This document shows positions 28,702 to 64,000 of a DNA stretch of 64,000 nt, one piece after another. Under the pieces are notes generated by a model. That model saw nothing but the letters and a program-made list of their open reading frames with translations, was not told where the DNA came from and did no database searches. The position numbers and the translations under genes were made by a program. How positions within the stretch are numbered: position 1 is the first letter of the stretch; each line of letters begins with the position of its first letter. The stretch lies in the IMG/VR virus record IMGVR_UViG_3300018080_006015, positions 32,001-96,000 of that record; one strand, given 5' to 3'. The stretch is from a virus.

Positions 28702-31287
28702 ATGAGCGGCAAAGTAAATCTAAAACAACTATTTCAATCTGATGCGGTTGGAGGCGGAATTATCCATTATGATGGTGATAATTGGGCGTCTTTTAATTCA
28801 ATGTGCGTATTTGATCATATTGCCGGCCTCGGGGATGGTTATTGTGATTCAATTGTGTGGATATTTAATGATGATCAACAACCTGTATTAGGTCAGCTTG
28901 GGTCTCTAAGTGGTGATGGTTACGATTTTATTATTCAAGCACAACCAACTACAGCTCCTGGATCACGGGGTGGTCATTTGGTTTTATCTCCTGGTGTTGG
29001 GGATGCATCTAATGGAGAGGTTATTTTTGTAGTTGGAGCAATTGGTGGACCAGCAGCTGTTGATATGGCCGTTTTAGGTCGTGATGTTGATGGTCCATAT
29101 TTTGAATTTACAGAAGATGCTGATGTGTGGCTTGGTCATGGCATAAGAGAATCAGCTGGTAATGGAAGATTATTACATTTTGAAGCGCAAGAGTCTATTT
29201 CAGCTTTTTCACGTGGTGGAGAACTAAGGTTAAGTGGTGGTGTAGGTGAGGCAACCGCAAATTGGCACGGCCCTGTTACAATTTATAGTGGTTCAACTCA
29301 GGCGGCATCTTTTGATTATTATCATGCCGATATAGATGTTAGGGTTGAGATTGAGCCGGCAGGTCTTGTTGCTACTGGAGAAAGTGCGGTAGATGTAGAT
29401 TTAAACATTGCTGATGTTGATGATGTTTTTGCCGTAAGTGCCACATATACTCGTGGGACAACAATAAGTGGAGATAAATTATACGGATGTTACGCGGGTA
29501 CACCTGGTGATTATTCTGCGGCTGGCGGTGATAGCAGAGAGGTGAGAGTTGCTGCCTATACAGCTAAAACGCCATTTAATGCTCAGTCAGCTGCAACAAT
29601 ATCAGCATTTTATATTGTTGGAGATTCTTCTGGTACAAATACTTATGATTATGGATTGTTCTGTCGTGATGAAACTCTTAGAATTGGCACAGAAGCTATT
29701 AATGTAAATAACGGCCCTGATATTGAGATCATAGCGGGAGATGGAGAAGAAAGTGGAATTACTAATGGCGGTGATATTATTTTAATAGCCGGTGATGGTT
29801 ATGGAGGTGGAAATGATGGTGTTGTTTATATTCCTGGAAAGCTGACGGTTGACGGTGCTTTAGATCCTATTTCTGTAATTATTCAAGACAAGGTGGCCGG
29901 TGATAGTGCATATTTACAAAGTTATGATGGTTACGCTGTGTCATTCGTTAATCCCGGTGATAATTTTGGCCGAATAAGATACAATGATTTAACGCAGGAT
30001 TGGGAGTATTCAACGCCAAATACTGCTGGTTGGCTGTCTATAGGTACTGGTGGTGGTGCTGGAGAATGGACACAATCGGCTAATACTTTATATCCAACAA
30101 CTGCCACAGTAGATACGTGGCAATTCCAAGAAGATCCGGCTTTGGGTGGAGTATTAATAACTCAAGAAGACAACACTTTGAGTAGTGGTTCGGGAGAGAC
30201 TTTTACCATTAGGGCTCAGGCGGCTACTGGCGGTGGTGGTCGTGGTGGAACATTAGTGTTACAGCAGAGTGCTGGTGCATTTGTTGATGGCAGTGTAGAT
30301 GTTTGGGATGCGGCTACGCCTACACCAAATGTAATAATGAGATGGCTTGATGATGGCCCGTATTGTCATGTTCCAAAATTTGCATTTTTATCTAGCGTAG
30401 TTAATCCGACCATTATTCATGAAGCGATTGCTACTGCGGGGACCGATTTAACCATTCAGGCACAACCATCCGAAGACAATGCTGGTGGAGCATTAATTCT
30501 TAACGGTGGTGGTGGAAGTGTAGTTTCTGGCTCATTTGATGGCGGAAATGTTGAAATAAATGGTGGTGATGCAAATGGAACTGGTGGTAATGGTGGCGAT
30601 ATTCAGTTAACCCCAGGAGGAGGGGGATCGGCGAGTGGTGATGATGGTGAAGTAATAATGATTTTTGGCTCATCAATTGTAAATACAACCTTTACAACTG
30701 ACGTTACTGGATATGTTGGCAGTATAGGAATTGTATTTTCACAAGCATCTACTAATCCAATAATTACGCAAGATGGGGGTGGTTTAAGCGGCGATCCTGG
30801 AGATCCACTGACAATAAAGGCTCAAACAGGAGCTAGCGATGCACAAGGCGGAGAACTTAGGTTGTTTGGTGGAAATGGCACAACTACATTTGCTGGCGGT
30901 GATGTGGTAGTTCACGGCGGTACTTCTTCACTTGGTTCTGGGGGAGAGGTACAATTACAAAGCGCAGCAGGTGCGAGCAGAATAAGAGTAGATGATAGTC
31001 ATTCATATTTGGATGAAGATCTTGAGGTAACAGATGATTACGATATTTATCCCACCACTGATGGACAAGGTAGTGTTGGAACAAATGCCAATAGGTTTGG
31101 GCTTATACGTGGAGTTACTGTTACTTCTGGTGACCTGGCGTTTGACGATAGAAAATGCCCAGTGTGTAATCAAGAGTTTCAGGTAGATGACGAGTTAGCA
31201 TTAAAGGTTATCTGTGTTGAGGATGATGATGTAGGACACAGAATTACAAAGACCGTACCAATGCATCAAACATGTTGTAAATCATAA
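28702..31287 (+). CDS. Gly-rich modular fibre/adhesin-like protein (861 aa) with C-terminal Zn-finger-like motif
   Basis: GG-x-hydrophobic repeats, one GKLTVDGALDP/GRIRYN module, C-terminal CPVC...MHQTCC. Confidence 0.65.
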   Translation: MSGKVNLKQLFQSDAVGGGIIHYDGDNWASFNSMCVFDHIAGLGDGYCDSIVWIFNDDQQPVLGQLGSLSGDGYDFIIQAQPTTAPGSRGGHLVLSPGVGDASNGEVIFVVGAIGGPAAVDMAVLGRDVDGPYFEFTEDADVWLGHGIRESAGNGRLLHFEAQESISAFSRGGELRLSGGVGEATANWHGPVTIYSGSTQAASFDYYHADIDVRVEIEPAGLVATGESAVDVDLNIADVDDVFAVSATYTRGTTISGDKLYGCYAGTPGDYSAAGGDSREVRVAAYTAKTPFNAQSAATISAFYIVGDSSGTNTYDYGLFCRDETLRIGTEAINVNNGPDIEIIAGDGEESGITNGGDIILIAGDGYGGGNDGVVYIPGKLTVDGALDPISVIIQDKVAGDSAYLQSYDGYAVSFVNPGDNFGRIRYNDLTQDWEYSTPNTAGWLSIGTGGGAGEWTQSANTLYPTTATVDTWQFQEDPALGGVLITQEDNTLSSGSGETFTIRAQAATGGGGRGGTLVLQQSAGAFVDGSVDVWDAATPTPNVIMRWLDDGPYCHVPKFAFLSSVVNPTIIHEAIATAGTDLTIQAQPSEDNAGGALILNGGGGSVVSGSFDGGNVEINGGDANGTGGNGGDIQLTPGGGGSASGDDGEVIMIFGSSIVNTTFTTDVTGYVGSIGIVFSQASTNPIITQDGGGLSGDPGDPLTIKAQTGASDAQGGELRLFGGNGTTTFAGGDVVVHGGTSSLGSGGEVQLQSAAGASRIRVDDSHSYLDEDLEVTDDYDIYPTTDGQGSVGTNANRFGLIRGVTVTSGDLAFDDRKCPVCNQEFQVDDELALKVICVEDDDVGHRITKTVPMHQTCCKS

Positions 31288-31345
31288 ACAACAAAAACAA
31301 CCAACAAAATAGAGAGTCTGACAATAGAAATAACAGGTTAAAATC

Positions 31346-32905
31346 ATGACAAAGGTTGATCTAAAACAATTTGCTCAAAGTGGGGCCGTTGACCAAAACG
31401 TTATTCGGTATAATGCAACTACAGGTTTGTGGGAACCTGGTGTGGCAGCTTTTTCTGGTGGTGGTGGTGCCCCTACAGCAGAAGACAAAAACCTTATACC
31501 ATTTGCTACCGGACCTGGTAATGGACAAGATACCGGAATTGAAATTAGCGAAGAACCAATAGGAGATCGTTATGTTACGGTAATTGTTAATGGTATTTCT
31601 TCTAGTATAGGAGATGGATATACCTCGTTGGACTGTTATTTTTCTATAGATGGTGGTCTTACAGCTTTAAATCTGTCTGCGATCACTACTGGTGCTAGGT
31701 TATATTGGAATAGTACGATTGCTGGGTTTCAGTTGGCTCCCACGGATGTAGTTGATTTAGATTACGATGTGTTAGATGGTTACAGTCCGGGCCCAGGCCC
31801 TAGTGGCGATTGTGGTTGGACAGATGATGGCGCTGTGGTTCGTTTGACAACTATTACTGATTTTGTTGGTGTTGGTACTGTTGCCCCTAATTTGAAGTTT
31901 GATGTTGTTGGTGATATTGGCGTTTCTAGTTCTCTAGTTGTTGGTCCATTAGCCACCGCTGCAACTGTTGGTGAAATTCGATTAAATACTGATAACTGGG
32001 TAATGTCTCGTCAAGGCGTATCAGATGTGGGCGTTGTTGGTTATGATTCTGCAGGAACAATGTCTGTATTAGGTCATAATAATCCTGCCTTAATGCCATC
32101 ATGGACTGCCGCAATATCAACTAATGGGTTTGTTGCTGGAAGTGCCGTTCCATATATGGCGGTTACTCCAAATTGGGCCGGAGTAAATGGTGTTTATATT
32201 AATTTGGACTCTATTCATTTTGAGGAAACAATTACAAATCCAATTATTACGCAGGATGCAACAAATTCAGCTGGGGCTGCGTCATATTTAGAGCTGTCCG
32301 CACAAGATAATTCAAATGCCGCTGGAATAGGTGGAAATTTGTTATTAGAACCAGGTGATGGAACATTAATGAATGGTGGTGTTCATATTGGGTTTAATCA
32401 CAGCACAACAGATGCAGATATTGGCGTTTGTATAGGCAGATACGCCAGTGCAGAAAATTATGGCGAAGTTGCACAGTCTAATGGTGTTTGGTCTTCTGCC
32501 GGTGAGTCTCAGTCATCTAGTCTGGTTTTAAGGAATGCGTCTTCCGGAGCCGTAACTGTAGATTTGTTTTTAGATGGTATGGCAGAATATTTTGTTTTAG
32601 ATACTATTAGTACATATATTTTTGAAATTAAAGTTGTGGGTTCGTCTCCTTCGTTGTGGCCAAATATAGTATCGGCGGCTTATAAGTTTGAACTATGTGG
32701 TCGTAGAGATAATTTTGGAACACAGATTATGGGATTAGTCAGTAAGACAATTATTTATGAAGACGAAGTTGGTTGGGATTGTGATATTGACATAGATGAT
32801 ACCGGCGCTGATGAATTAAATATACAATGTACAGGAATTGCCGGCAGAGATATCTTTTGGACTGCATATGTTAGAGCCACAAAGGTTCAAATTCCACCAA
32901 TCTAA
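31346..32905 (+). CDS. Modular fibre-like structural protein (519 aa)
   Basis: N-terminus KVDLKQFAQSGA shared with 28702; a domain shared with 28117; GWTDDGAVVRLTT shared with 32929; C-terminal beta domain ending WTAYVRATKV. Confidence 0.65.
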   Translation: MTKVDLKQFAQSGAVDQNVIRYNATTGLWEPGVAAFSGGGGAPTAEDKNLIPFATGPGNGQDTGIEISEEPIGDRYVTVIVNGISSSIGDGYTSLDCYFSIDGGLTALNLSAITTGARLYWNSTIAGFQLAPTDVVDLDYDVLDGYSPGPGPSGDCGWTDDGAVVRLTTITDFVGVGTVAPNLKFDVVGDIGVSSSLVVGPLATAATVGEIRLNTDNWVMSRQGVSDVGVVGYDSAGTMSVLGHNNPALMPSWTAAISTNGFVAGSAVPYMAVTPNWAGVNGVYINLDSIHFEETITNPIITQDATNSAGAASYLELSAQDNSNAAGIGGNLLLEPGDGTLMNGGVHIGFNHSTTDADIGVCIGRYASAENYGEVAQSNGVWSSAGESQSSSLVLRNASSGAVTVDLFLDGMAEYFVLDTISTYIFEIKVVGSSPSLWPNIVSAAYKFELCGRRDNFGTQIMGLVSKTIIYEDEVGWDCDIDIDDTGADELNIQCTGIAGRDIFWTAYVRATKVQIPPI

Positions 32906-32928
32906 AGCAACAAACAGTAGGCATATAA

Positions 32929-35900
32929 ATGGCAAATGGTTTTATATACGACAGAAGTATACCTCAGATTGAATTAATTGATGGTTATGACGGAACTACC
33001 CGTGTAATCATAGACGGATCTGAAAACACTAACAGTAAAGTTTATGTTAATGCTATTGCTGGGAATGGTTTGTCCCCCGTTACTATAGATGCCGACTTTG
33101 GTGCTGGTGTTCAAAATCAAGTCGCGGTATATGCTAATGTTTTTAGATCTGGTCCCATTACAGCATCTGGAGCTGGAATTGGCTGTTATTTGGCTCAGAT
33201 AGAAGAACATGCCGCTGATGATGTGCGTTCTATAATTGCTGGTTATTTGGCGTTGGAGCCTAGAAGATCAGCTCCTCATGCCACAGAAAGCGTAGCTGCA
33301 TTTGCTGCTTTCGGTGATTCTGCCTCTGATAATTTGTGGGACAGTACACTAACGATGTACGGTCAAGATTGTATAATTAATGCAACTTCAATGGGTTCGG
33401 GTAGTGGGCCAAATTTTGCAGTGTATACGGGGCAAGGTTATGACGGTTACGGCGGTGGTGATGCTGTATTTACAATGGGTTACGGCGATATTGCTGGCGG
33501 AGCTGGTGGTAGTTTTATAGTTTTTCCTGGATTAGGGCCAACTAGTGGAGAACATGGATCCGCAATCTTTTGGAGTGTAGATGAAGATCAAACGCCAGTA
33601 CGAATTAGAACCACTGTTCCAAATTTTGCTGATTTGACAAGGTGGGAGAATTATGATGGTTATTTATTAGCTGCTGTAACTGGTGACGGTCATTTTCAGA
33701 TGACAGATGGGGCTGTACCAGGATATGTATTGACATCTGATTTTGATGGAGTCGCTTATTGGGCCCCTAGTGACGGTTATGATGGATATGGTTATTGGAC
33801 ATTAGATGGTAATTTTTTATATCCCAACTTTTCTGATTATGACGTTGTAATAGGTGATACTACAACATCTATTCCTGGGGAAAAATTACGAGTAAATGGC
33901 GATACAACAATAGATGGTAGATTGAGGGTCGGGACGGCTACAGATGCTGTTGGTATTGGCGATTTTTCTTCTGGTATGGTTGGTACTACCAGGTTGCATT
34001 ATAATCAGGCAAATGAGAGTTTAAATCTTTATGATAATGCAAATCAGCAAGTCATTCAATTACAAGCATTTACTCCGCTTTCGACATTGCCCTATGTTGC
34101 GGTTGGACTTGGAACTCTTTTTCTTCCGGGACCAATTAATCCAGTAAGCCCAGAAACTGTAAGAATAGACAGTCCACTTTCTGGTTTGCGCATAGAGGAT
34201 AATTTAGGGCCAGCTGGTAGTTATATTGAGTTTGGAGATGGACAACTTGCTGCCCCATCTCAAGCGATTGGGCCTTTGGGACCTGAGGCTAGATTAATAT
34301 ATCATGCTGGTTTTAATTCTTTAGCGGTTTCTTATGCCGGCGCTCCTTATGTTCCAATTGGTGGTGGCGCACCTTCTGGTTGGACGGATGATGGCGTTGT
34401 TGTTAGATTAACTACCATTAATGATGCTGTAGGTATAGGTACGGCCACGCCAGCAGCTGGTATGAAGCTTCACGTTGTTGGTGATACTTATTTAGAGTGT
34501 GATGATTTTTGGGTAGGTACAGACGGTTATGCGCGCATGACCTATTCTAGGCTGCAAGAATCATTAACCCTATTTGACAGTTCTGATCAGGCAACCATAT
34601 TATTAGACGCATTTACTAATGGTGGGTATATAGGAATAGGATCTACAGCGGTTATGGGTCCAAGCGGTTCAGAGCAATTGAATGTTGATGGTGACGCTTA
34701 TATTGGGGGAAAACTAACCGTAATTGGAGAGATCGATCCTGTTTCAGTAACTATTGAGGACAAAGTTACATTTGATTCGGCTTTTTACGAGGCTTATGAT
34801 GGTAGCAATGTATCTCCTGTTTTACTTTCTGAGTCGAGAGGATTACTTAGATACAATAATTACACACAAGATTGGGAAATGTCTACCCCAAATACTGGCG
34901 GATGGGTTAGTTTTGGTGGTGATGGCTATGCCGGTTATTGGGATCTTAAAGACGGATATATTCTTCATCCATTAGATGATGATTTTGATGTTACTATTGG
35001 GACAGATAGCGTAACAGGTACTGGCGAAAAGTTATACGTATATGGTCGTCAAGTAATACGTTGTGACAATCTTCCGTCTGGATCGTCAGAGGCGCTGTAT
35101 GTTGAGGCGGATATTCAGGAATCCTATCAGGCGGTAATTAACGCTAGTATACGCAGGATGACCCCTCTTGATGGTTATTATTTCGTTACCGGCATTACTA
35201 GTCGTGTTAATAATTTAGCTGCGGACAATATTTATTCTGCCTCTGTGGCATTTGCTGCGGCTGAACCGGATGTAGAAAACCCACAAGCGGTACGAGTTGC
35301 TTATGTAGTAGAAGGCAATCAAGATACCGGCAATTTTTATAATGTTGGTCTTGCGGCGGTTGATCAGGATCTAGAAATCGGATCAGTACGAAGAGCGCCT
35401 GGTGATGGCTTTGATGTTAGAATATCTGCCGGCCAAGGAAGTTTTGATGGTTATGGCGGCACTTTACATTTGAGCAGTGGTGGTGGAGAATCTACAGCTC
35501 CTGGTGGTTATGACGGGGCAGATATTGAAATGTACACCGGTAATGGTGCATCTACTGGTCCTTTTGCGGGTGCGGCAGGAAATTTGCTGATAATATTAGG
35601 TAATGCCTCTTCTGATGGTTTTGTTCCAGCAGATGGTGGTAGTTGTAATGTTGAGTTGGGTTCGGCGGCAGGAATAGGTGGAAATCCTGGAAGATTTACA
35701 ATTACTGGAGCTAATGGTCATTTTTCCGGCCCAATGGCTATATTTCAGAATCAAGATGGTTATTCCGCATTAGAAATTGGCGTAGAAGGATGGGCCTCTG
35801 TTGGTGGCGGATTTGGTCTTGCTAATAGGGGTGATTTTGCGGCCGGAATAAGTGGTGAGTCCAGCGTAATTTATTTCCAAACAGATGGTGCGATGCGTTG

Positions 35901-38900
35901 GAATGATAGTGGTGGGCTTAGTACCGTCACTATAAATGGTAACACTTCTTTTGTGGGTATTGGTACAGATGTACCATTCGGATCTGAGTCGTTAAGTGTT
36001 TTGGGTGATGTTCGTATAGACGGTGAATATTTAAGGTTTTCTAAGTATAGCCCTTCACCCAAAATTACAATAGAAAATTACGACCTTGTTGGTGCTGCAA
36101 ATTCGTTAACTATTAGGTCACAAATTGCAGATAGGCTAAATTCTATTGGTGGTGATTTGATTTTGGGCGCCGGAGATGCGTTAAATCTTAATGGTACTGG
36201 CGGTGATTTAACCATAACGCCAGGACGAGGAAGTAACACGGATGGCACCCTTTATTTACGGGATGGGCAAGGACAATACGGATTATTAGTTAGAACTAGT
36301 GGGGCTTATTCTCCAAACGCATTAGTTGACTTTGGAGCCGCTGAGGTTACTTCTAGTGGAAATCCTATATGGAATTTTGGAACATCATTGGCTACATTTG
36401 GCGGTAATGTTCAAATTGATGGAAAACTGACTGTAGATGGTGCGTTAGATCCCATTTCTGTAACCGTAGAAGATAAAGTTGCCGGAACTGGCGCATATTA
36501 TGAGGCTTATGACGGAAGTTTAGCCGGCGTCGTAAATCCTGGAGATGACTTTGGTAGAATTAGATATAATGACAGCACCGGATCGTTTGAGCTGTCTACA
36601 CCAGTAAGTGGCGGTTGGGTTCCCATGACTGGTGGTGGCGGTGGTGGAGGAGACGGTTATTGGTCCTTAGATGGCTACACATTATATCCAGACAGATTTA
36701 ACTATAATGTTATAATTGGTGACAACCTTCCTTCTGGTTATGGTGAGAAACTGGCCGTACATGGACGCCAGACAATTTTTGGTGGCGCCATTGATCAGGC
36801 CGGGTATAGTGCTCTTTATGTTTCTGCTGAGTGCGATGTAATTGCTAGTAGTGTAATTAGAGCGCAAATGGATCGTGTTAATCCGGCGCCACCAGGCCAG
36901 GTGGTTTCTGGAATTTCTTCTCAGCCTCAAACTATTGTAGGAGATAGCGGTCAATCAGGTACATTTGCCTTTTTTGCAGAAACGCCACAACGATATGATT
37001 TGGATGCGCAGTGTGCGGCCTATGTTTTATTTGGTGACGAAAGTTCGGGAGATTATTATGATGCCGCGTTGTTGTCAGTAGATCAGCGAATGGTATTATC
37101 TACTATTAGGGCCGGAAGTCCTGGTGATGGCCCAAATATCTACTTGGCGCCTTGTGATGGTTATGACGGTTATGGCGGAGATGTTATACTACAAGGTGGT
37201 AGTGCCTTTTGTACTACAACTCCGTATTCTGCCGGAGGAATTCAACTACAAGGTGGTGATGCCCGCTCGATTACCGGTAGCCCATTTCCACCCGGTTCAT
37301 CTATAGATGGTGGTGGAGTTCTAATTGAGCTGGGAGAGGGCGCAGAGGGTGGTAGTAATGGTATATTTAATGTTACAACCCCAAGAAATACCACAGATGA
37401 TTTCGTAATATTTAGGGACGGCTATGATCGCCCGGTATTTTCTGTAGATCCATATCTCGTTGATATTCATACAAATGCTAATGTAAAGAACGACTTGTAT
37501 GTGGGTGGAAAATTAACAGTAGTAGGAGAGATTGATCCTATTGCTGTTATTATAGAGAGCCCATTAAATGATGCATATTTGGAGTTTGGCGACGGTCAAA
37601 GTGCTGTTATTTCTACATCTAATACTGGTCGTATTAGGTATAATGATGCTGAACAGAAGTTCCAGATATCAATTAATACTGGGGATTATGAGGATATTGT
37701 TACTACGGCCTATTCCGTATGGACTCGCGATGTAGCAGGATTTGTATATCCTACATCTGTTTATGATCAGGTGGTTATTGGTGGCTCCGATCCTCCAGGT
37801 ACAGAACAGTTAAGAGTTAGTGGTGGTGATTTCTTAATGGAGGGCGATATTGATTTTGGAGTTAATACAATATCTCCAACATTGTCTCAAAGACAAACAT
37901 CTGGGATCGGTACAGATTTAAATATAGTAGCTCAAAGAACTGTTGGTGACGGATATAATGCGGGTTCATTGTGGTTGGTAGGTGGTAATGCCCCGACAAC
38001 TGGTATGGGGTCTTCGGGTGGCAATGTAATTGTTGCTCCGGGAGATGGTGACACAGAGGGGGCGTTTTATTTGAGAAACGCTGCCTTAGACAATATGATT
38101 ATCGCTCTTGATGATAATATTAACTTTACCGTGGTGGGTGGTGGATCTGGTTCTGTTACGGCAACTGGCAATCCTACTTGGAATTTCGGTACATCAGCAG
38201 CTACTTTTGGCGGAGATGTATTTATAGATGATCAGCTTGGTGTTGGAACAATAACGCCAGACGCTAATTCTAAGGTAGAGATAGAGTACACACAAGTTAC
38301 AAATGGTCGTAGTTTGTTGATTGACCAGACGGTTGGCGCTGTTGGCGTAAATTATGGTGTTGATGTATCTTACACACGGACAAATGGCGCCACTCCGGGA
38401 CAAATGATGTCCGCTTATCATACGGTATTAGCTAATGACGCGGCGGACTCAGGAGTTTGGATGGCCGCTTTCCATGCCGATTTACCAGACAAGCTTCCTG
38501 GTAATGGTATGTTTGGTATTGTTATTACTGGAGATGAGGGTGCCACTCAAAATTATGACCAGGCGTTGGTAACAATAAATCAGTCATGTAACATTAGCAC
38601 CGCACAGTTTAGCGCTGGTAGTTCTTATCCTATTAGATTAAATACAGGATATCCAAGTGGTGATGGTAGTTCGGGCTTCTTGGAATTAGAAAGCCTAGAC
38701 GCCGTAGCAACAGCTCCTGGTAGCGCACATGAGGCTGGAATTATTTATCTTATTGTGGGTGATTCGGCAGCTGGCGATGGTGCGGCAATAGCAGGATCTG
38801 ATATCAGGATGTATACTGGAGCTGCAGCCAGTGGTATTGGTGGTGGTGCTGTAGACGGAGGAGATGTTCAATTAGTTACTGGTCCTGGTGATGGATATGG

Positions 38901-41900
38901 ATATGGTGGTGGTGTTATTCTTTCTGGCACAGGACATGATGAATTTTTCTTGCAAATTAATGATAGTCGTAATGCAGAAACATCTCCGGGAAGCACTGGT
39001 CGTATAATTTATGATGCTTCTATTCAGAGATTTATGATTTCTCAGAACGGATCGGTATATGCTCCAATTGCCACAGATGATGGATATCTTGGTTCTAAGT
39101 GGACGCGAGACGGATCTGTTCTTTATCCAAATTACCCAGCCACTGATTCTGTAGTAATCGGCGGAACATCTTTGGTTTCGGATGAGTCTTTACATGTTAA
39201 TGGGCGACAGATAAATGTTGGAGGAGAGCTTCTTTCTGATGAATCTGCCTTAGAGGTTTCCGGGTCTATAGGACAAACAAGTTCTTCAATAATAAGCTCG
39301 AAAATGGAACGATATGCCGCTTTAAATGCTGGAGATTTTGTTTGCGGCATATCTAGCGACATAAGGACGTTATTGGCAGATGATCCGTTTGCTATAAGAG
39401 CATCATTTGTTGCGTCTGGCGTTTATGGAGATTATGTACCAGCAATAACATCTGCATTTTTAGCAAAACCTGGTGATATTTCTTATGGTAATGTTTTAAC
39501 AGCCTTGGATCAGCATCTAACCATGAACGCCGTAACAAGAGATCCTGGCGATGGTTATCATGTATTTATACACGCAGCTAGTGCTTTCGAAAATGGCGAT
39601 GGCGGTGGGGTGTTTATAAATTCTGGAAACGCTGATGCAACTAGCGCTGGCAGTTATTCTGGGGGACCTATTAGACTTGCGGTTGGTCCATCAGAAGCGT
39701 TGCCTGGTGGAGAGGCTGATGGAGGAGAAATTAGCATACAAACAGGCAGCGGAGTATCAGATGGAGGCGTGTCTGCATATGGTGGGTTGTTTAATATTAG
39801 ATTAGGATCTGGTTCTGGTGCCGGTTATGGCGGTGGTGTATTAATTTCTTCATTAGATGGGTACGACGCATATTTGCAAATGGAATCTGGTGAAAACGCA
39901 CAGGTTTCGGATATTGGTACTGGAAGAATCATATATAATGCTACTACTAATAGATGGGAAGTTTCTGAAGATGGCGGTCCTTATAAACCATTAGTAAGTG
40001 GCGGGAGTGTTGGAGATGGATATTGGTATCGCGATCCTATTGGCGTTTTATATCCCGAAAATGTTGCCGATAATGTGGCTGTAAATGCGACTAGCATGTA
40101 TGATACAGAGGTATTTAGGGCCGCAGGAGATATGGCGGTTGGGGGCGATGTAATATTTGAGTCGCTAGTTGTTGGGCCGTCAATATATCAAGATTCTATT
40201 AGTTCTGGTGGCGCTGAAGCACTAACAATTAGCGCACAAACAACGGATGATGTAGCTGCAAATGGTGGGGACCTTGATCTGTTCGGTGGTAATGGTGGAG
40301 CTACTAGTGGTACGGGCGGTAGTGTTAATATTGCTAGTGGTACTGGTAATAATGACGGAGCTATAAACTTTAAATCGGGCAGTTTTGATCTGTTAAGTTT
40401 TGCAAGTGATGGCGGCACACAATCTCGTATAATTTTTGATAGTGGAGTTAGTGCTGCTAATATTTATGTTGCACAAGAATTTGGTACGGCAAATGGCTGC
40501 GATCTTACAATTTCAGCCCAACCTGGCGCAATTTCAGGGGGTTCTGGCGGTGATTTAAGATTAATTTCTGGGCAACAAACTGGCGGCGGCATAAGTGGAG
40601 ATATTGAGCTGAGATGTGGCTTATTTCCTGTTGCAAGGATATATTCTAATAGTACAATTGCGGGTTTTGTTGCGTTTGATTACTCTATTGGTGATTGTTA
40701 TATTTTACAAGAACAGAGTTCGTCTGGAGATGGCTCTGATTTTTATATTTCGGCTCAGCAGTCATTATCGTCTGGGGACCACGATGGAGGCAAGTTATCA
40801 TTAAGTGCTGGTGATGGATATGGAAACGGAAGTGGCGGAAATGTATTAATACAATCTGGAAATGGTGGGGCTAATGTTTTTGGTTATCCTGGTCAAATTG
40901 AATTTAAAGCCGGATCGCTTGATCTCGCGGTCTTGAGAGAATATAATTTAAGCCCAAATTCTGCTAATTTTGTTTTTGATTCTGAGCTATCAAGTGGTGT
41001 GGTTATTTTTCAGGACACTGCTCCGGTCGGTATGGATGGTGCTGATTTTCTAGTTGGGGCACAAGACGCTGGTGCTGGAGGGTCTAACGGTGGCGATTTA
41101 ATACTATTTTCTGGGCTTGGTAATGTTGCAGATGGCGCAGTTCAAATAAATGCCGGTAATGCTCCAGTTTTCAGAGTAAGCAGAGATAATGGTACATCGT
41201 TAGGACAGATAGAGTTTGATGATAATCTTTCTGGAGTATTAATATCTCAACAAAATCCATCAGTTTCGGGTGATGGGCGTGATATAACAATTCGGGCTCA
41301 AAGTGGTATTGCAGGCTTTGATGGCGGTAATATAGAGATATTGTCAGGAGAGGCTGGTGCAGGTGGTACGGATGGAGATATTATACTTAACGCGGGCAGC
41401 GGAGAAGTATATATACCCGGCAAATTAACTGTAGATGGATATTTAGATCCCTCGGCTGTTATTATAGAAGATAAGGCAACCGGTGATGGTGCCTATTTTG
41501 AGATGTACAATGGTACGGCTGTAGCTGCCCCAGATATTGGTGATAACTTTGCTCGGATACGATATAACAATATATCAAATCAGTTTGAGTCTGCAGTGCC
41601 TGGAGGCAGTTGGCAAGTATTAGGTGGTGGTTCGACCGGTGATGGATATTGGTATAGAGATCCTTTGGGCATTTTATATCCCGAAAATGTTGCTGATAAT
41701 GTTGTTATTGGCGCCGCATCTATGTATGATACAGAGGTGTTTAGAGTAGCGGGAAATACATCTGCTGGTGGGGATATTATATTTGAGTCTTCAGTAACTG
41801 GTCCGTCAATATATCAAGACTCTATTAGCTCAGGAAATGCAGAAACATTAACAATTAGAGCACAATCCACAAGCGACGCGGCAGCAAGTGGTGGCGACTT

Positions 41901-42666
41901 AGATATTTATGCCGGTGCTGCCACAAATATAACGGGTGGTGATGGTGGAAATCTAATACTTCATAGCGGAAATACCGCTGAACCAGGAACAGATAATGGT
42001 TCTATAGATTTGTATAGCGGCAATACAGATCATATGGTTTCGTTTAAGATAGATGGCAGCTACACATTGTTAGAATTTCATCCAGATGTGATGCCCGTTA
42101 TAGTTCAGGAGGACGCTGATTCTGGAGACGGATCCGATCTTGTTATTGTTGCTCAAAGCGCTGCGGAAGATGGAGCAAATAGTGGTGGTAATATTGTAAT
42201 ACAGACTGGTGATGGCTATGATGGCGGAAGTAATGGCATTATAGAGCTTAATGGAAATGTTGAACATAGTTCGGCCGATGTAGTTAGTGGTGTAGCGTTC
42301 GGTATGTCAAATACGACATCTGATGCAAATCCTGTAAGATTATACTTAGACGAATATGATAATGATTTGGTGCTTGAAGATGATTCGGCGTATACTTTTG
42401 ATATTATTGTAACAGCGATAAATACTGGAACAGGAGATGTTGCTTCGTGGCATTTCTATTATTCTGCAAAGCGTTATGGTGGTATTACCTCAGAAGTTAA
42501 TGAGTCGGACAAAACCACGATCAGTGATGAAAGTGGCGGGGTGTGGAGCTGTGATCTGGATGTTAACCAGGCTGTAAACAATGAACTTGATATTGTTTGT
42601 GTCGGAGATGTTGGTGAAAATATCAAGTGGGGCGCAACAGTTAAATTTACCAAAATAAAAATGTAA
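32929..42666 (+). CDS. Giant Gly/Asp-rich repetitive fibre/adhesin-like protein (3245 aa)
   Basis: Single ORF; four GKLTV.G..DP modules, repeated GRIRYN and GDGYW..LYP; about 26 DGY; C-terminal domain ending WGATVKFTKI. Confidence 0.75.
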   Translation: MANGFIYDRSIPQIELIDGYDGTTRVIIDGSENTNSKVYVNAIAGNGLSPVTIDADFGAGVQNQVAVYANVFRSGPITASGAGIGCYLAQIEEHAADDVRSIIAGYLALEPRRSAPHATESVAAFAAFGDSASDNLWDSTLTMYGQDCIINATSMGSGSGPNFAVYTGQGYDGYGGGDAVFTMGYGDIAGGAGGSFIVFPGLGPTSGEHGSAIFWSVDEDQTPVRIRTTVPNFADLTRWENYDGYLLAAVTGDGHFQMTDGAVPGYVLTSDFDGVAYWAPSDGYDGYGYWTLDGNFLYPNFSDYDVVIGDTTTSIPGEKLRVNGDTTIDGRLRVGTATDAVGIGDFSSGMVGTTRLHYNQANESLNLYDNANQQVIQLQAFTPLSTLPYVAVGLGTLFLPGPINPVSPETVRIDSPLSGLRIEDNLGPAGSYIEFGDGQLAAPSQAIGPLGPEARLIYHAGFNSLAVSYAGAPYVPIGGGAPSGWTDDGVVVRLTTINDAVGIGTATPAAGMKLHVVGDTYLECDDFWVGTDGYARMTYSRLQESLTLFDSSDQATILLDAFTNGGYIGIGSTAVMGPSGSEQLNVDGDAYIGGKLTVIGEIDPVSVTIEDKVTFDSAFYEAYDGSNVSPVLLSESRGLLRYNNYTQDWEMSTPNTGGWVSFGGDGYAGYWDLKDGYILHPLDDDFDVTIGTDSVTGTGEKLYVYGRQVIRCDNLPSGSSEALYVEADIQESYQAVINASIRRMTPLDGYYFVTGITSRVNNLAADNIYSASVAFAAAEPDVENPQAVRVAYVVEGNQDTGNFYNVGLAAVDQDLEIGSVRRAPGDGFDVRISAGQGSFDGYGGTLHLSSGGGESTAPGGYDGADIEMYTGNGASTGPFAGAAGNLLIILGNASSDGFVPADGGSCNVELGSAAGIGGNPGRFTITGANGHFSGPMAIFQNQDGYSALEIGVEGWASVGGGFGLANRGDFAAGISGESSVIYFQTDGAMRWNDSGGLSTVTINGNTSFVGIGTDVPFGSESLSVLGDVRIDGEYLRFSKYSPSPKITIENYDLVGAANSLTIRSQIADRLNSIGGDLILGAGDALNLNGTGGDLTITPGRGSNTDGTLYLRDGQGQYGLLVRTSGAYSPNALVDFGAAEVTSSGNPIWNFGTSLATFGGNVQIDGKLTVDGALDPISVTVEDKVAGTGAYYEAYDGSLAGVVNPGDDFGRIRYNDSTGSFELSTPVSGGWVPMTGGGGGGGDGYWSLDGYTLYPDRFNYNVIIGDNLPSGYGEKLAVHGRQTIFGGAIDQAGYSALYVSAECDVIASSVIRAQMDRVNPAPPGQVVSGISSQPQTIVGDSGQSGTFAFFAETPQRYDLDAQCAAYVLFGDESSGDYYDAALLSVDQRMVLSTIRAGSPGDGPNIYLAPCDGYDGYGGDVILQGGSAFCTTTPYSAGGIQLQGGDARSITGSPFPPGSSIDGGGVLIELGEGAEGGSNGIFNVTTPRNTTDDFVIFRDGYDRPVFSVDPYLVDIHTNANVKNDLYVGGKLTVVGEIDPIAVIIESPLNDAYLEFGDGQSAVISTSNTGRIRYNDAEQKFQISINTGDYEDIVTTAYSVWTRDVAGFVYPTSVYDQVVIGGSDPPGTEQLRVSGGDFLMEGDIDFGVNTISPTLSQRQTSGIGTDLNIVAQRTVGDGYNAGSLWLVGGNAPTTGMGSSGGNVIVAPGDGDTEGAFYLRNAALDNMIIALDDNINFTVVGGGSGSVTATGNPTWNFGTSAATFGGDVFIDDQLGVGTITPDANSKVEIEYTQVTNGRSLLIDQTVGAVGVNYGVDVSYTRTNGATPGQMMSAYHTVLANDAADSGVWMAAFHADLPDKLPGNGMFGIVITGDEGATQNYDQALVTINQSCNISTAQFSAGSSYPIRLNTGYPSGDGSSGFLELESLDAVATAPGSAHEAGIIYLIVGDSAAGDGAAIAGSDIRMYTGAAASGIGGGAVDGGDVQLVTGPGDGYGYGGGVILSGTGHDEFFLQINDSRNAETSPGSTGRIIYDASIQRFMISQNGSVYAPIATDDGYLGSKWTRDGSVLYPNYPATDSVVIGGTSLVSDESLHVNGRQINVGGELLSDESALEVSGSIGQTSSSIISSKMERYAALNAGDFVCGISSDIRTLLADDPFAIRASFVASGVYGDYVPAITSAFLAKPGDISYGNVLTALDQHLTMNAVTRDPGDGYHVFIHAASAFENGDGGGVFINSGNADATSAGSYSGGPIRLAVGPSEALPGGEADGGEISIQTGSGVSDGGVSAYGGLFNIRLGSGSGAGYGGGVLISSLDGYDAYLQMESGENAQVSDIGTGRIIYNATTNRWEVSEDGGPYKPLVSGGSVGDGYWYRDPIGVLYPENVADNVAVNATSMYDTEVFRAAGDMAVGGDVIFESLVVGPSIYQDSISSGGAEALTISAQTTDDVAANGGDLDLFGGNGGATSGTGGSVNIASGTGNNDGAINFKSGSFDLLSFASDGGTQSRIIFDSGVSAANIYVAQEFGTANGCDLTISAQPGAISGGSGGDLRLISGQQTGGGISGDIELRCGLFPVARIYSNSTIAGFVAFDYSIGDCYILQEQSSSGDGSDFYISAQQSLSSGDHDGGKLSLSAGDGYGNGSGGNVLIQSGNGGANVFGYPGQIEFKAGSLDLAVLREYNLSPNSANFVFDSELSSGVVIFQDTAPVGMDGADFLVGAQDAGAGGSNGGDLILFSGLGNVADGAVQINAGNAPVFRVSRDNGTSLGQIEFDDNLSGVLISQQNPSVSGDGRDITIRAQSGIAGFDGGNIEILSGEAGAGGTDGDIILNAGSGEVYIPGKLTVDGYLDPSAVIIEDKATGDGAYFEMYNGTAVAAPDIGDNFARIRYNNISNQFESAVPGGSWQVLGGGSTGDGYWYRDPLGILYPENVADNVVIGAASMYDTEVFRVAGNTSAGGDIIFESSVTGPSIYQDSISSGNAETLTIRAQSTSDAAASGGDLDIYAGAATNITGGDGGNLILHSGNTAEPGTDNGSIDLYSGNTDHMVSFKIDGSYTLLEFHPDVMPVIVQEDADSGDGSDLVIVAQSAAEDGANSGGNIVIQTGDGYDGGSNGIIELNGNVEHSSADVVSGVAFGMSNTTSDANPVRLYLDEYDNDLVLEDDSAYTFDIIVTAINTGTGDVASWHFYYSAKRYGGITSEVNESDKTTISDESGGVWSCDLDVNQAVNNELDIVCVGDVGENIKWGATVKFTKIKM
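40015..41900 (+). repeat. Internal diverged duplication (~0.26 kb; copies at ~40015-40280 and ~41640-41900)
   Basis: GDGYWYRDP(I/L)G.LYPENVADNV....SMYDTEVFR.AG....GGD.IFES.V.GPSIYQDSISSG.AE.LTI.AQ occurs twice, with clear nucleotide similarity. Confidence 0.85.
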
Positions 42667-42685: not shown

Positions 42686-43924
42686 ATGGGATTTAAGCGA
42701 GATAATGTAATTGGCAGCATAACTCATACAAATGGTATTGTTGTTTTTCCAGATAAAATAACGGTAGGCACAACGTCATTATTGGGCGATGAAACACTAC
42801 GTGTGGATGGTTATGTAACTGTTGGTGGTGCTCTGGTTGATACTTTTATAGAAATGACTGATGGTCAGCTGGTTGATGTTAGTAATCCCAATGAAGGTAG
42901 AATAAGGTATAATGCATCAACACAACATTGGGAAATTTCTTCTAATGGGGGTGCATATCAGGTTATTGATACTAGCGCTGGTGAGTGGACTAGAGTTGGT
43001 GATACTTTGGAACCCAGTACGGCATCAGTAAACACATGGCAGTTTGATGAGACAGCTTTTGGCGAGCCATATATTAAGATTGAGCCAACTAGTTCTGCGC
43101 CGGGTAAGGCTTTAACAGTTATTGCGCAAAATACAAGTGCTGGTAGTTCTGCGGCCGGCGATTTAAGATTATATGGTGGCGAAAGCGCTAATAGTGGTCC
43201 TGGTGGTAATACTACTTTGAAAGGAGGTACGGCAGCGAATGGTACTGGCGGGTATGCACGAGTAGAAGGTGGTAGGGGCGCAACAGGTGACGGTGGTGAT
43301 ATAATAATAATTCCCGGTTCTGGATCTGTTAGTAATGGCGAAATACAAATAAAAGATGCTAATAGTATTGATCAAATTGTTATAGGTAATGATTTAGTTA
43401 ATTTTACAGGTCTGTCTGTTATAGCGGATGGTAATCCAACCTGGGAGTTTGGATCCGGAAACGCTACCTTTGAAGGTAACGTTCTTGTTGAGTCTGATTT
43501 GGAAGTAGAGGGCAAATTAGTTATAGATGGTTATTATGATATGGCGCCTGCTAGAAGCTTGGTGGCTATTGGTCAGACAACCGATACAACCCCAACCGAA
43601 CTTTTAGTTAATCTCGCAGATAGGGTGGTTATACAAGATAATTCTAATTGTTCGTTTTCTTTGTTAGTTTCTGCCAGAAGAGTTGATTCAAATGGCGAAA
43701 ACGCTACATTTATGTTTGAAGGAAATATTCATCGCGATAGCGGAGTGGGAACAACTGTTTTGGATGATTATCAAAAAACTATTGTTCATACCGATGATGC
43801 GGACTGGGATGTAGATATAAGCGCCGATGTAGTAAATGGCGCTCTTAAAATAGAAGTTGTTGGCGAGAACGCAAAAGTCATTATATGGGCAGCAAGAATA
43901 GATACAATGGAAATTGTTTATTAA
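42686..43924 (+). CDS. Modular fibre-like protein (412 aa)
   Basis: N-terminus paralogous to 43992; GRIRYN, GNPTWEFG; C-terminal domain ending WAARIDTMEI. Confidence 0.65.
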   Translation: MGFKRDNVIGSITHTNGIVVFPDKITVGTTSLLGDETLRVDGYVTVGGALVDTFIEMTDGQLVDVSNPNEGRIRYNASTQHWEISSNGGAYQVIDTSAGEWTRVGDTLEPSTASVNTWQFDETAFGEPYIKIEPTSSAPGKALTVIAQNTSAGSSAAGDLRLYGGESANSGPGGNTTLKGGTAANGTGGYARVEGGRGATGDGGDIIIIPGSGSVSNGEIQIKDANSIDQIVIGNDLVNFTGLSVIADGNPTWEFGSGNATFEGNVLVESDLEVEGKLVIDGYYDMAPARSLVAIGQTTDTTPTELLVNLADRVVIQDNSNCSFSLLVSARRVDSNGENATFMFEGNIHRDSGVGTTVLDDYQKTIVHTDDADWDVDISADVVNGALKIEVVGENAKVIIWAARIDTMEIVY

Positions 43925-48956: not shown

Positions 48957-49766
48957 ATGGACAATACCGTTTGTAAAAAAATAGGAAGACATTTTTGGCT
49001 ATGGCCTTGGCAACACACAAAAAGGTGTGCTGTTTGTGGTGCCGTAAAAAATCTTAAAGTAGGTGAAAATACCATTACAGCCAGTCCTGACATTCCTCCA
49101 GTTACTGATGTTTTACGCTGGTCAATATCACAGTCATCTTTAAACGAGGGTGATATTGGTATGGACACTAATTTAGGCCGACCTCAAGCATATATGCATT
49201 CGGATAATCGCGATCTCATACACGCTGATGAGTCTATGGCCCAATATGAAACACAAAGATTATCCGCCCCACAACATAGCGTATATTTGGCAGTAGATAG
49301 TTCTAAAGATGTTGCGGTTTCTATTAGTGGGGCTTTTATTGGTGTAAATAGTGGGTTTCCGGTTTATATAGAAATGCGCCCATCTACATATGTCGTTGGA
49401 GCTAATGATTTTGCAGTTATAGAGCGTACAAGATATCGAATAGGCGTAGGAACTGGAGAAGATCATGTAGGTCATAATGGTCATGGTATTATGTATATGA
49501 ATTCAATAGATTCTGGTGAGCGACATGAAGGATGGTTTCAGTCTTTTTTTTGGGTTGATGATCAAAGAGATTGGCTGACAATTACAACACAATCTGGTCA
49601 TACAGAAATATATGAAGCGGCAGAATATATAGTAACATCGCATGCTTATACTAGAATACAAGTTATAGAAGACTTTAATTTAATAGAAATAGCCGGAAAT
49701 GCCAATGATTTTTTTCAAATAGGATCAAGATTTACTGCAGCTTGGTGGCCTATGAAGGCACTCTAG
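48957..49766 (+). CDS. Zn-finger-headed paralog 1 (269 aa)
   Basis: CKKIGRHFWLWPWQHTKRCAVCG; DVLRWS; GDIGM..GRP; EGWFQS; GSRFT..WWPM. Confidence 0.75.
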   Translation: MDNTVCKKIGRHFWLWPWQHTKRCAVCGAVKNLKVGENTITASPDIPPVTDVLRWSISQSSLNEGDIGMDTNLGRPQAYMHSDNRDLIHADESMAQYETQRLSAPQHSVYLAVDSSKDVAVSISGAFIGVNSGFPVYIEMRPSTYVVGANDFAVIERTRYRIGVGTGEDHVGHNGHGIMYMNSIDSGERHEGWFQSFFWVDDQRDWLTITTQSGHTEIYEAAEYIVTSHAYTRIQVIEDFNLIEIAGNANDFFQIGSRFTAAWWPMKAL

Positions 49767-49773
49767 GAAATAT

Positions 49774-50589
49774 ATGAGTACGGGAATTTGTAAAAAAAGA
49801 GGGAAACATTTGTGGATGTGGCCATGGCAACAGACAAAACGATGTTTATTATGTGGCGCTTTTAAAAATTTACATGTTGGGGAAAGTTCATTAACGTGGA
49901 GTCCAGATATTCCACCGGTAACTGATGTTTTGCGGTGGTCCAGCTCAGAATCTCCAACTCAAGCTGGTGATATTGGAATGAGCACAGTTACCGGAAGGCC
50001 AAGATCTTATATTAGTTCTGCAAGTAGGGATTTAGTGCATTATGATGAGGCTATGGTTCAAATAGAAACTATTAACGTGGCTGTTCCGTCCCAAGTTATT
50101 AATTTTACAGGGCTTGATGGCGATATCGATATTGCGTATTGTCTTTCTGGCAATTTTGATGGCGATAATGCTGGTATTCAACATTGGATTGAAATAGATA
50201 TTAATGGAAATGCTCCAACTGTTAATGAGCAATATAGAATAGAGAGGACGCTTTATAATACTAATGTTGGTGGCGTTGTTGAAGATCATACATCTGGCAC
50301 TACAGCTCATCCCATTATGTGGGTAAGAAATTTTGACAGTTCAATTAGGGAGGGATGGTTTCAGTCTTGGATTTGGGCATTAAAGTCATATGATTGGATT
50401 TTTATAAATACTTTGTCTGGTCATAGTGAGTGGGTGGATGGTCAAATTTATATCGTTACATCGCATTCATTTTTGCGCATAGAAGCAGATCAAATCAACA
50501 CAATATCGGTGGATGGTAATATTGGAGCGTATTTTGAGCCTGGTTCAAGGTTTACTCTTGCATATTGGCCGATGAAAGATTTGCCGTAA
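49774..50589 (+). CDS. Zn-finger-headed paralog 2 (271 aa)
   Basis: CKKRGKHLWMWPWQQTKRCLLCG and the same conserved blocks. Confidence 0.75.
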   Translation: MSTGICKKRGKHLWMWPWQQTKRCLLCGAFKNLHVGESSLTWSPDIPPVTDVLRWSSSESPTQAGDIGMSTVTGRPRSYISSASRDLVHYDEAMVQIETINVAVPSQVINFTGLDGDIDIAYCLSGNFDGDNAGIQHWIEIDINGNAPTVNEQYRIERTLYNTNVGGVVEDHTSGTTAHPIMWVRNFDSSIREGWFQSWIWALKSYDWIFINTLSGHSEWVDGQIYIVTSHSFLRIEADQINTISVDGNIGAYFEPGSRFTLAYWPMKDLP

Positions 50590-50602
50590 TTTTGAGGAAA
50601 TA

Positions 50603-51415
50603 ATGAAAAAATCATTGTGTAAAAAAATTGGAAGACATTTTTGGTTATGGCCTTGGCAAAGATGTAAGCGATGTATTGTTTGCGGCGCATTTCAAACCTT
50701 GCAAGCTGGCGAAAATACTATTACTTCCTCCCCTAGTGCGGGATTTGATGTTTTAAGATGGTCTGGCAGTCAAAATGCCTTACAAGCTGGTGATTTGGGT
50801 ATGGATACTGCAACTGGGCGCCCACAAGCATACATTCATTCAGCAAATCGCGATCTTATACATATTGATGAGTCTATGGCTCAAATAGAAACAATACGTG
50901 TATCTGCCCCTACGAATTCTGTGGGTTATGGTCCTGTTGTTGGAGATCGTGCTGGTGCTTTTTGCATAACAGGGATGTATCTGGGATTACAACAGGCTCC
51001 TTCATTGGATTATTTGATTTATTTGGGAGTAAATGGTACAGGACCAGCATTAGGTAATAGTCATTATATTATTGAAGACACATATGGTACTCCGGGTGAT
51101 ACTCAATATTCAGGAAATAGAAATGCTATTGTTCATGGTTGGGATGGAGATTTTGGAGATGTACACGAAGGATGGTTCCAAACTTGGGTGTGGGTAGGTA
51201 GAGATATTGAATATATTGTGGCCAACACTAGGGCGGGAGTTATGCAGTGGGATGATGGGGTGTTGTTTTCTACTACACAACATTCATATTTACGAATGCT
51301 GCAATCAGATGTTGGGTCTGAAATAACCTCATTGGAAATTATTACGGATCCTGTTGGTTTTTTCCAAGCTGGCTCTAGATTTACATTTTCTTGGTGGCCT
51401 ATGCAAACATTATAA
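50603..51415 (+). CDS. Zn-finger-headed paralog 3 (270 aa)
   Basis: CKKIGRHFWLWPWQRCKRCIVCG and the same conserved blocks. Confidence 0.75.
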   Translation: MKKSLCKKIGRHFWLWPWQRCKRCIVCGAFQTLQAGENTITSSPSAGFDVLRWSGSQNALQAGDLGMDTATGRPQAYIHSANRDLIHIDESMAQIETIRVSAPTNSVGYGPVVGDRAGAFCITGMYLGLQQAPSLDYLIYLGVNGTGPALGNSHYIIEDTYGTPGDTQYSGNRNAIVHGWDGDFGDVHEGWFQTWVWVGRDIEYIVANTRAGVMQWDDGVLFSTTQHSYLRMLQSDVGSEITSLEIITDPVGFFQAGSRFTFSWWPMQTL

Positions 51416-51452: not shown

Positions 51453-51504
51453 TTGAGCTATCCAACGCCTAATTTTGCATTGCTGTAGGTATTGAACTAT
51501 CCAA
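51453..51504. repeat. 13-bp direct repeat TTGA(G/A)CTATCCAA x2, 39-bp period
   Basis: ttgagctatccaa at 51453-51465 and ttgaactatccaa at 51492-51504, each followed shortly by cctaat, upstream of the giant ORF. Confidence 0.6.
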
Positions 51505-51557
51505 TTTTACCTAATAAATTGCTTTTTAGTAATAATACACATATAGCGAGATGAATA

Positions 51558-64000: not shown

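Follow-up and report, generated by a model that had tools for sequence, protein, structure and literature searches.

The excerpted text of PMC12619734 (citing Freeman et al. 2023) describes phage-encoded glycosyltransferases that glycosylate mycobacteriophage virions, with the glycans at the C-termini of capsid and tail-tube subunits, and it presents the moraphages, large phages of aquatic origin, as a lineage with four core glycosyltransferase orthogroups. According to the abridged text of PMC2943079, β-glucose or β-galactose is O-linked to tyrosine in the S-layer proteins of Paenibacillus alvei (SpaA) and Thermoanaerobacter, at 2–4 sites per protein, with transfer by an O-oligosaccharyltransferase (OTase) during secretion. 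Here we describe the tripeptide Asp-Gly-Tyr (DGY) in a 64,000-nucleotide stretch of viral DNA (the window; bases 32001–96000 of IMG/VR record IMGVR_UViG_3300018080_006015, a single viral contig of 119,629 bp). DGY behaves as a short linear motif kept by selection for itself on lysine-poor outer virion proteins, and its enrichment is a property of a whole, widespread clade of huge phages. A sequence-only reading of the window had taken DGY for a surface-turn acceptor site that is sulfated or glycosylated by enzymes encoded in the first 13.9 kb. The loop motif stands, sulfation does not, and glycosylation is possible though unproven.

Six giant proteins encoded in the window carry the motif:

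28702–31287, + strand: Gly-rich, Lys-poor fibre protein of 861 amino acids (aa), 4 DGY, orthologue of P0003
31346–32905, + strand: Lys-poor protein of 519 aa, 2 DGY
32929–42666, + strand: giant fibre protein of 3245 aa, 26 DGY (expected 1.99)
42686–43924, + strand: fibre-related protein of 412 aa, 2 DGY
43992–48938, + strand: fibre protein of 1648 aa, 10 DGY, orthologue of P0002
51558–64000, + strand: giant fibre open reading frame (ORF) running past the end of the window, 33 DGY within the window, orthologue of P0004

The last of these reaches 5319 aa and 38 DGY at its full length in the contig. Our recount agrees exactly with the per-protein numbers given earlier, and the earlier estimate of about two chance copies in the 3245-aa protein is borne out by the computed value. 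So is the statement that the first 28 kb lack the motif, since all 25 ORFs of at least 150 aa in the first 28.7 kb have none. Pooled over the six proteins, 77 copies were observed against 5.1 expected from composition and 14.2 expected from a first-order Markov model, and the simulated maxima were 14 in 2000 composition shuffles and 27 in 1000 Markov simulations. DGY is the commonest tripeptide of these proteins, followed by GDG (59) and GGG (52), and it takes up 19% of their tyrosines (77/410). Equal enrichment of DGF, DGW or NGY, which the sequence-only reading had named as counter-evidence, is not seen: DGF (2), DGW (0), DGL (0), DGI (1), NGY (2), SGY (3) and EGY (0) are all at or under expectation. 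Elsewhere on the contig, a 990-aa baseplate-associated protein has a normal Gly content yet 12 DGY, including the tandem run DGYDDGYSDGYSDGY, and a 2232-aa protein has five. The family of the 990-aa protein is likewise exact for DGY, its near-synonyms being without enrichment. Two Gly-rich proteins downstream of the fibres (569 aa and 1260 aa) have no DGY. With at least 99 copies in 119 kb, this contig bears the heaviest load among the genomes examined.

Of the occurrences of the degenerate codon pattern GAYGGNTAY in the eight DGY-bearing genes of the contig, 99 are in frame 0 of the coding strand, two in other frames and one on the opposite strand, and codon usage within DGY equals bulk usage. 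The constraint is therefore on protein and not on DNA, as had been argued from the varied codons, and a DNA-level cause such as a methylation or recombination site is ruled out. About one third of the copies lie in three recurrent modules (GKLTV-DGY-[IL]DP, GGG-DGY-W..D..G.LYP and AG-DGY-GGG). Collapsing similar flanks by single linkage leaves 34 to 56 independent contexts, with 41 singletons at the 7-of-20 threshold, which rules out module duplication as the sole cause, again in line with the sequence-only reading. Two results rule out a Gly/Asp-rich composition as the cause, namely the Markov simulations and the existence of homologues that have a like composition but no DGY. Among 145 further fibre homologues from an exhaustive search, P0129 and P0130 are rich in DGY (23 and 15 copies) and P0196 has tyrosine after 9 of its 12 DG, whereas P0198 has 38 DG and no DGY, and P0152, P0226 and P0174 also have none, all four being Gly-rich and Lys-poor. 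Such DGY-free fibres of the same make-up suggest that a lineage-specific factor is at work.

The enrichment extends well beyond this contig. The fibre orthologues on other contigs, P0002, P0003 and P0004, carry 9, 7 and 21 DGY, where about one is expected in each. At least 484 homologues of the 990-aa protein were found, and the 120 listed have 6–12 DGY each, with a mean of 9.0 against 0.22 expected. A scan of IMG/VR gave 75 loci on contigs of up to 459 kb, in which the 990-aa homologue has 1–10 DGY and an adjoining protein of ~2200–2400 aa has 3–16. At the nucleotide level, all 21 related records of at least 200 kb (L037 was left out of this count) show a strand-asymmetric excess of GAYGGNTAY, with 41–106 copies per record on the major strand, 3–35 on the minor strand and 4–38 for a reversed-pattern control. 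A full-text literature search found no paper describing a DGY motif, the Asp-Gly-Tyr papers that it listed being unrelated, and the excerpts of the moraphage paper (PMC12619734) do not mention it.

Within a genome, the motif is confined to a particular set of proteins. In the complete 459-kb relative G003, 475 of 508 ORFs lack DGY, and the 73 ORFs with under 4% Lys carry 68 of the 84 copies, a density of 2.60 per 1000 aa against 0.16 elsewhere. Tyrosine follows DG in 28.6% of cases in these Lys-poor ORFs and in 4.1% in the other ORFs. In G003 the Lys-poor ORFs are the fibre genes and a single block that comprises the baseplate genes and the stretch immediately upstream of them. This block takes in the positional equivalent of ORFs that have weak sheath matches in three relatives (a sheath family search gave matches in 3/5 records, all sub-threshold). 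A weaker form of the pattern is seen in the distant complete relative G020, whose Lys-poor ORFs hold 20 DGY where 2.7 would be expected and whose remaining ORFs hold 22 where 14.3 would be. Among the Lys-poor virion proteins that bear DGY are the fibres, the periphery of the baseplate and, probably, the sheath.

Lysine content is itself unusual in these genes, at 0.5–3% in virion proteins against 6–13% in the rest of the proteins that the AT-rich genome encodes (window 28702–64000; L092–L098 of G003). This depletion coincides with the DGY enrichment and possibly reflects avoidance of Lys-directed modification, conjugation or proteases.

How the sites evolve bears on what is being selected. In the 990-aa family eight DGY tyrosines are 90–100% conserved against a mean column consensus of 71%. 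Phe makes up a fraction of 0.011 of the Tyr and Phe residues in 10 DGY columns, compared with 0.234 in 26 further Tyr columns (Mann-Whitney p = 6e-4), and it reaches at least 5% in none of the former but in 18 of the latter. The 2232-aa family gives 0.016 against 0.159, from three DGY columns only. As Phe almost never replaces a DGY tyrosine, it is the hydroxyl itself that is protected. The positions of the sites, in contrast, drift. Members of the 2232-aa family have 3–16 DGY per protein spread over 88 alignment columns, 73 of which are occupied in at most 10% of the sequences and none in 80% or more, and pairs of fibre orthologues have 17 sites in common and 25 that are lineage-specific, the tyrosine alternating with V, S, N or D in well-aligned stretches. 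A junction module has DGY in most of its copies here, DGA, VGE, IGE or VGA in paralogues and TGL or TGA in distant homologues. Site use also differs in part between the two subclades of the 990-aa family: sites 724 and 921 are common to both, and the DGY of the near subclade is DDY in the far one at site 691 and NGL or NGI at site 909. The sequence-only reading had listed two such toggles; VDGALDP/VDGYLDP is confirmed, while of the second pair IGDGYTS was found and VGNGAIN was absent from the 14 proteins searched. Maintained density, shifting positions, an exact word and tandem runs are what would be expected of a motif read by a trans-acting factor. DGY is thus a real, exact and virion-specific loop motif with its hydroxyl under selection and its density maintained, an exact tripeptide kept in hundreds of virion proteins at 10- to 40-fold excess.

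The loop assignment comes from an AlphaFold2 model of the 990-aa protein (47 sequences; mean predicted local distance difference test score, pLDDT, 78; predicted template modelling score 0.74), in which 10/12 DGY tyrosines lie in coil compared to 11/29 other tyrosines (Fisher p = 0.009). Y909 and Y921, the pair with the highest conservation, fall in a low-confidence loop (residues 903–927). Foldseek searches with this model gave weak links to phage baseplate and central-fibre proteins and a firm link to dockerin at residues ~594–662 (4uyp_B, probability 1.0; Pfam Dockerin_1, E = 6.6e-9). The sequence-only reading had allowed that DGY might belong to calcium-binding cores. This holds for the two copies in the dockerin loops of the 990-aa protein, but the pattern [DN]-x-[DN]-x-D-G fits only those 2 of its 12 DGY and none of the 77 in the fibres, so that the calcium-loop explanation is local and not general. 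The two dockerin-loop copies are also the least conserved sites of the protein (Y in 51% and 97%). For the DGY-dense N-terminal fibre domain AlphaFold2 gave a pLDDT of 32 from a 4-sequence alignment, and this model was not used.

The contig is collinear with G003 and runs from structural genes through a glycan cluster and replication genes to the giant Gly-rich proteins. Upstream of the glycan cluster are a sheath-initiator gene, a Baseplate_J gene, the 2232-aa protein, which contains LamG, and the 990-aa protein with its dockerin domain. The cluster itself spans ~32 kb (genome ~14.5–46 kb), and the first 13.9 kb of the window are its tail end, with these genes among others:

1886–2473, − strand: Sulfotransfer_4 sulfotransferase, a lineage-specific accessory without co-variation with DGY
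5660–6316, + strand: Sulfotransfer_1-like sulfotransferase, lineage-specific
6335–7102, + strand: glycosyltransferase of family 2 (GT2), lineage-specific, no homologue in G003 or G020
6981–7775, + strand: Sulfotransfer_1/3-like sulfotransferase, lineage-specific, nearest solved structures cytosolic SULT1 enzymes
9367–10371, + strand: GDP-mannose 4,6-dehydratase
12954–13916, + strand: dTDP-glucose 4,6-dehydratase (RmlB-like), kept across the whole clade

The listed ORFs at 6335–7102 and 6981–7775 share ~120 bases, and the real start of the sulfotransferase is probably further downstream. As a whole the cluster encodes a family 4 glycosyltransferase (GT4), at least five GT2 enzymes, fucosyltransferases of the GT10 and GT11 types, a Glyco_trans_1_2 protein, four methyltransferases, a hexapeptide acyltransferase, four sulfotransferase-like proteins, the GDP-mannose dehydratase and two further SDR sugar enzymes.

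Little of this cluster is shared across the clade. G003 keeps the GT4, three GT2 genes, Glyco_trans_1_2, two unknowns and sugar-nucleotide enzymes, and is without any of the cluster's sulfotransferases, methyltransferases, fucosyltransferases or its acetyltransferase. G020 keeps two genes only, the GT4 (40% identity) and the dTDP-glucose dehydratase gene at window 12954–13916 (55%). The enzymes of the first 13.9 kb, which the sequence-only reading had treated as a set that would travel with the motif, therefore for the most part do not do so: the methyltransferases, GT2, acetyltransferase and sulfotransferases are absent from both relatives. G003 has the GDP-mannose dehydratase (67% identity) and G020 lacks it; in 29/60 loci it is found no more than 10 kb from the 990-aa homologue. 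Only the GT4 and the dTDP-glucose dehydratase are universal, each found in 22/22 records. The GT4 gene (genome 14594–15700) is upstream of the window and directly follows the 990-aa homologue in 59/60 loci with full flanks, and the dehydratase matches 2hun_A with E = 6e-79.

Since these two are the only cluster enzymes whose distribution matches that of the motif, the explanation we tentatively favour is that the DGY tyrosine is O-glycosylated in the cytoplasm, primed by the clade-wide GT4. The phenolic hydroxyl would accept an O-linked sugar, transferred in the cytoplasm by the GT4 that is encoded directly after the baseplate genes, and the universal dehydratase would supply a 6-deoxyhexose donor. 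In this genome the GT2, GT10 and GT11 enzymes, methyltransferases, acetyltransferase and sulfotransferases may then elaborate the glycan, with the sulfotransferases acting on sugar and not on tyrosine. The fuller picture, of a clade-wide sequon read by a cytoplasmic GT4 and giving fibres, baseplate and sheath a dense 6-deoxyhexose-based coat that is customised in each lineage (here fucosylated, methylated and sulfated), is slightly more doubtful. A further observation may point the same way. The number of GT2 matches ranges from 0 to 8 per record, the DGY excess is smallest in the three records that lack any, and, with kinship ignored, the excess rises with GT2 matches (rho 0.78, p = 0.024 for the 8 near-complete relatives; 0.44, p = 0.047 for all 21). 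We regard this trend as a hint only.

Several points weigh against tyrosine glycosylation. The GT2 trend rests on related genomes and few points. Since the whole clade has both the GT4 and the dehydratase, finding them alongside DGY has no discriminating power, and they could instead serve glycosylation of DNA, lipid or the host envelope. No record of the 22 has a Wzy_C domain (PF04932) over the cut-off, where the control matched 9/14 genomes; known tyrosine O-glycosylation relies on an extracytoplasmic OTase, and with none encoded the chemistry would here have to be of an undescribed kind. The GT4 belongs to no specific NCBIfam family, its matches lying far under the cut-offs, as do the generic matches of the core glycosyltransferase cluster, and among solved structures it is most closely related to 7mi0_A, an unnamed glycosyltransferase; a search of the PDB with the GT4 as a single sequence gave no match. 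At some DGY sites the far subclade of the 990-aa family has hydrophobic residues (NGL or NGI at 909, MIL or MIV at 594), a hint that these positions may be partly buried. In the 990-aa protein, two DGY occupy positions 5–7 of dockerin calcium loops. Finally, the tyrosine modification is something that we infer, in an uncultured phage. A complex prediction of the GT4 with residues 580–990 of the 990-aa protein scored 0.00, was run without controls and speaks neither for nor against binding. A 724-aa unknown gave a GT-B-like lead in the ESM Atlas (score 0.89, under the reliable mark).

Three observations concern neighbours of these genes. A thioredoxin/DsbH-like gene lies between the 990-aa protein and the GT4 (L001:14076–14597, genome coordinates) and has a homologue in 1/75 loci. 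Conserved cysteines stand beside the DGY cluster of the 990-aa protein. In two relatives the dehydratase homologue matches in two pieces (residues 3–140 and 124–320) within one frame of ~700 aa (G011:C1:55716–57809 and G014:C1:105200–107281), suggesting an intein or other in-frame insertion.

The alternative that survives best, though we judge it unlikely, is that DGY is an unmodified Asx or type-I′ turn whose tyrosine hydroxyl makes a fixed hydrogen bond or helps to hold Ca2+ or another cation, adopted repeatedly in acidic, Gly-rich loops and stiffening virion proteins outside the cell. DG is a classic turn former, DGY sits at strand and helix ends and in loops, and two copies are in real dockerin calcium loops. 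The eight conserved sites of the 990-aa family behave like structural residues, a hydrogen bond would equally account for the strict need for a hydroxyl, and the L or I found at some sites in the far subclade fits a structural role. However, a general fold motif should also occur elsewhere, yet its density in Lys-rich ORFs is 0.16 per 1000 aa, and the similar fibres P0198, P0152 and P0226 do without it altogether. The DxDxDG loop fits 0/77 fibre copies. The sites in the fibres and the 2232-aa family turn over and alternate with S, N, V or D, tandem copies in low-confidence loops resemble dosage and not fold, and NGY, DGF and DGH would suit a turn nearly as well, yet are depleted.

We consider it improbable that DGY works non-covalently, as a docking or adhesion word with a chemically unchanged tyrosine. 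In one version many weak Asp and Tyr sites would bind host surface polysaccharide; in another, the reader would be a phage decoration or assembly protein or a chaperone. Asp and Tyr are a common sugar-binding pair, and restriction to outer virion proteins, a density that is kept as positions shift, tandem arrays and a clade-specific signal that implies a trans-acting reader would all suit this explanation. On the other hand, the analysis turned up no candidate for the reader, Trp, which usually provides the stacking on sugars, never follows DG in the giant proteins, and DGY also occupies conserved positions of the baseplate protein that are not obviously outward-facing.

Another modification or cross-link of the tyrosine by a host enzyme or an unrecognised phage enzyme (phosphorylation, nucleotidylation or oxidative Tyr-Tyr coupling), or a labile Asp-Gly ageing timer, is more improbable still. 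The required hydroxyl and the exact, virion-specific motif would agree with a modification, and Asp-Gly is the most aspartimide-prone dipeptide according to the excerpted PMC12447389 and PMC5074248, as the timer would need. The evidence favours no particular chemistry: tyrosinase was found in 0/22 records, with control genomes equally silent, and kinases and other writers were never systematically searched.

Direct sulfation of DGY tyrosines by the sulfotransferases of window 1–8 kb, as the sequence-only reading had proposed, we regard as very nearly excluded. Besides the three sulfotransferase-like genes of the window there is a fourth at genome 29879–30520, and an acidic residue lies close to the tyrosine; known sulfation sites, however, typically have the acidic residue at −1, which here is Gly. 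PF17784 and PF00685 are the families that the enzymes of the window match, with one enzyme just touching the PF13469 cut-off (27.2 vs 27), and their solved relatives are small-molecule enzymes of the SULT1 aryl and oxamniquine types, with no TPST or RaxST among the matches. Matches to PF00685, PF17784 and PF13469 occur in 5, 2 and 3 of the 22 records, and sulfotransferase homologues in 0/75 related loci and in neither G003 nor G020. Of the eight relatives that are at least 90% complete, all have the DGY excess and only G002 has any sulfotransferase match. The expected co-variation between motif and enzymes is thus absent, and relatives without the enzymes are enriched all the same (7/8), which refutes phage-encoded tyrosine sulfation as the general cause.

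Several features of the contig itself place it among the jumbo phages. The window encodes a TubZ-like tubulin, UvsW-like and DnaB-like helicases, an intein-bearing ribonucleotide reductase and a sigma-factor-like protein. CheckV puts the completeness of the contig at ~21%, and it is thus a fragment; genomes of the clade reach about 460 kb. The tubulin gene (window 14008–15372) adjoins the dehydratase in G003 and G020 as well, with 55–56% identity. The large subunit of the ribonucleotide reductase (window 21713–25525) is split by an intein with a LAGLIDADG homing-endonuclease domain (Pfam Intein_splicing and LAGLIDADG_3). Between the fibre genes, at window 48957–51415, are three tandem paralogues of 269–271 aa (mutual identity 39–48%) that are Lys-poor, have no DGY and match no family. 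Over window 28000–64000, G+C climbs from ~0.30–0.36 in enzyme and replication genes to ~0.39–0.44 in fibre genes, consistent with coding that is rich in Gly, Asp and Ala and poor in Lys. The C-terminal ~80–140 residues of the 861-aa protein (residues ~720–860) are a widespread module, located C-terminally in most of the 150 representative matches listed, proteins of widely varying length, and are probably a fibre tip or assembly domain.

Family searches otherwise returned little. Pfam matched none of the six giant proteins, PHROGs none of the eight proteins tried, and of 10 structural proteins of G003 nine had no Pfam match and the tenth a sub-threshold one. A search of cultured phages with the 1648-aa protein gave no match, and IMG/VR scans with the 412-aa protein, P0004, P0003, P0198 and P0152 gave no relatives. 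The T4 Gp23 capsid family had no match in the records and none in control genomes either.

Should DGY prove to be a sequon for tyrosine glycosylation, viruses would have their first tyrosine-directed glycosylation code, and its enzyme, a direct protein-Tyr O-glycosyltransferase with a defined sequon, would be of a new class. The pair would offer a portable tag and matching enzyme for site-specific tyrosine glycosylation. Environmental huge phages would then coat their host-recognition machinery with self-made glycans, with consequences for receptor binding, for particle stability and for shielding against proteases and defence systems. The proposal is directly testable with two or three recombinant proteins, and even without any modification DGY is a rare clean case of linear-motif selection in phage structural proteins.

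Compared with the systems already described, tyrosine glycosylation at DGY would be similar in outline to the virion glycosylation of mycobacteriophages. There too, in the excerpted text of PMC12619734, the proposal is that glycosyltransferases of the phage modify its own virion proteins, in the cytoplasm, and the glycosyltransferase genes here adjoin structural genes. In contrast to the C-terminal mycobacteriophage glycans, the candidate sites here are a defined word, are internal and number dozens to ~100 copies over fibres and baseplate. With the S-layer systems the likeness is that a sugar-tyrosine linkage exists on a prokaryotic surface protein (abridged text of PMC2943079). They differ in that none of the 22 records here encodes a Wzy_C-type OTase that passes the cut-off and assembly is cytoplasmic, and the same abridged text gives no S-layer sequon. 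Protein tyrosine sulfation by TPST and by RaxST of Xanthomonas resembles the DGY case in its tyrosine target with an acidic neighbour, but the present sulfotransferases belong to a different type and show no co-variation with DGY. The DxDxDG loops of dockerins and EF-hands correspond to two DGY of the 990-aa protein and are unlike the 77 in the fibres. We know of no enzyme that reads DGY. In its behaviour the motif resembles the N-x-S/T sequon and the Bacteroidetes O-glycosylation motif, D-(S/T)-(A/I/L/V/M/T). Like them it is a three-residue word, independent of position and fold, whose density is kept while sites come and go; unlike them, its acceptor would be tyrosine.

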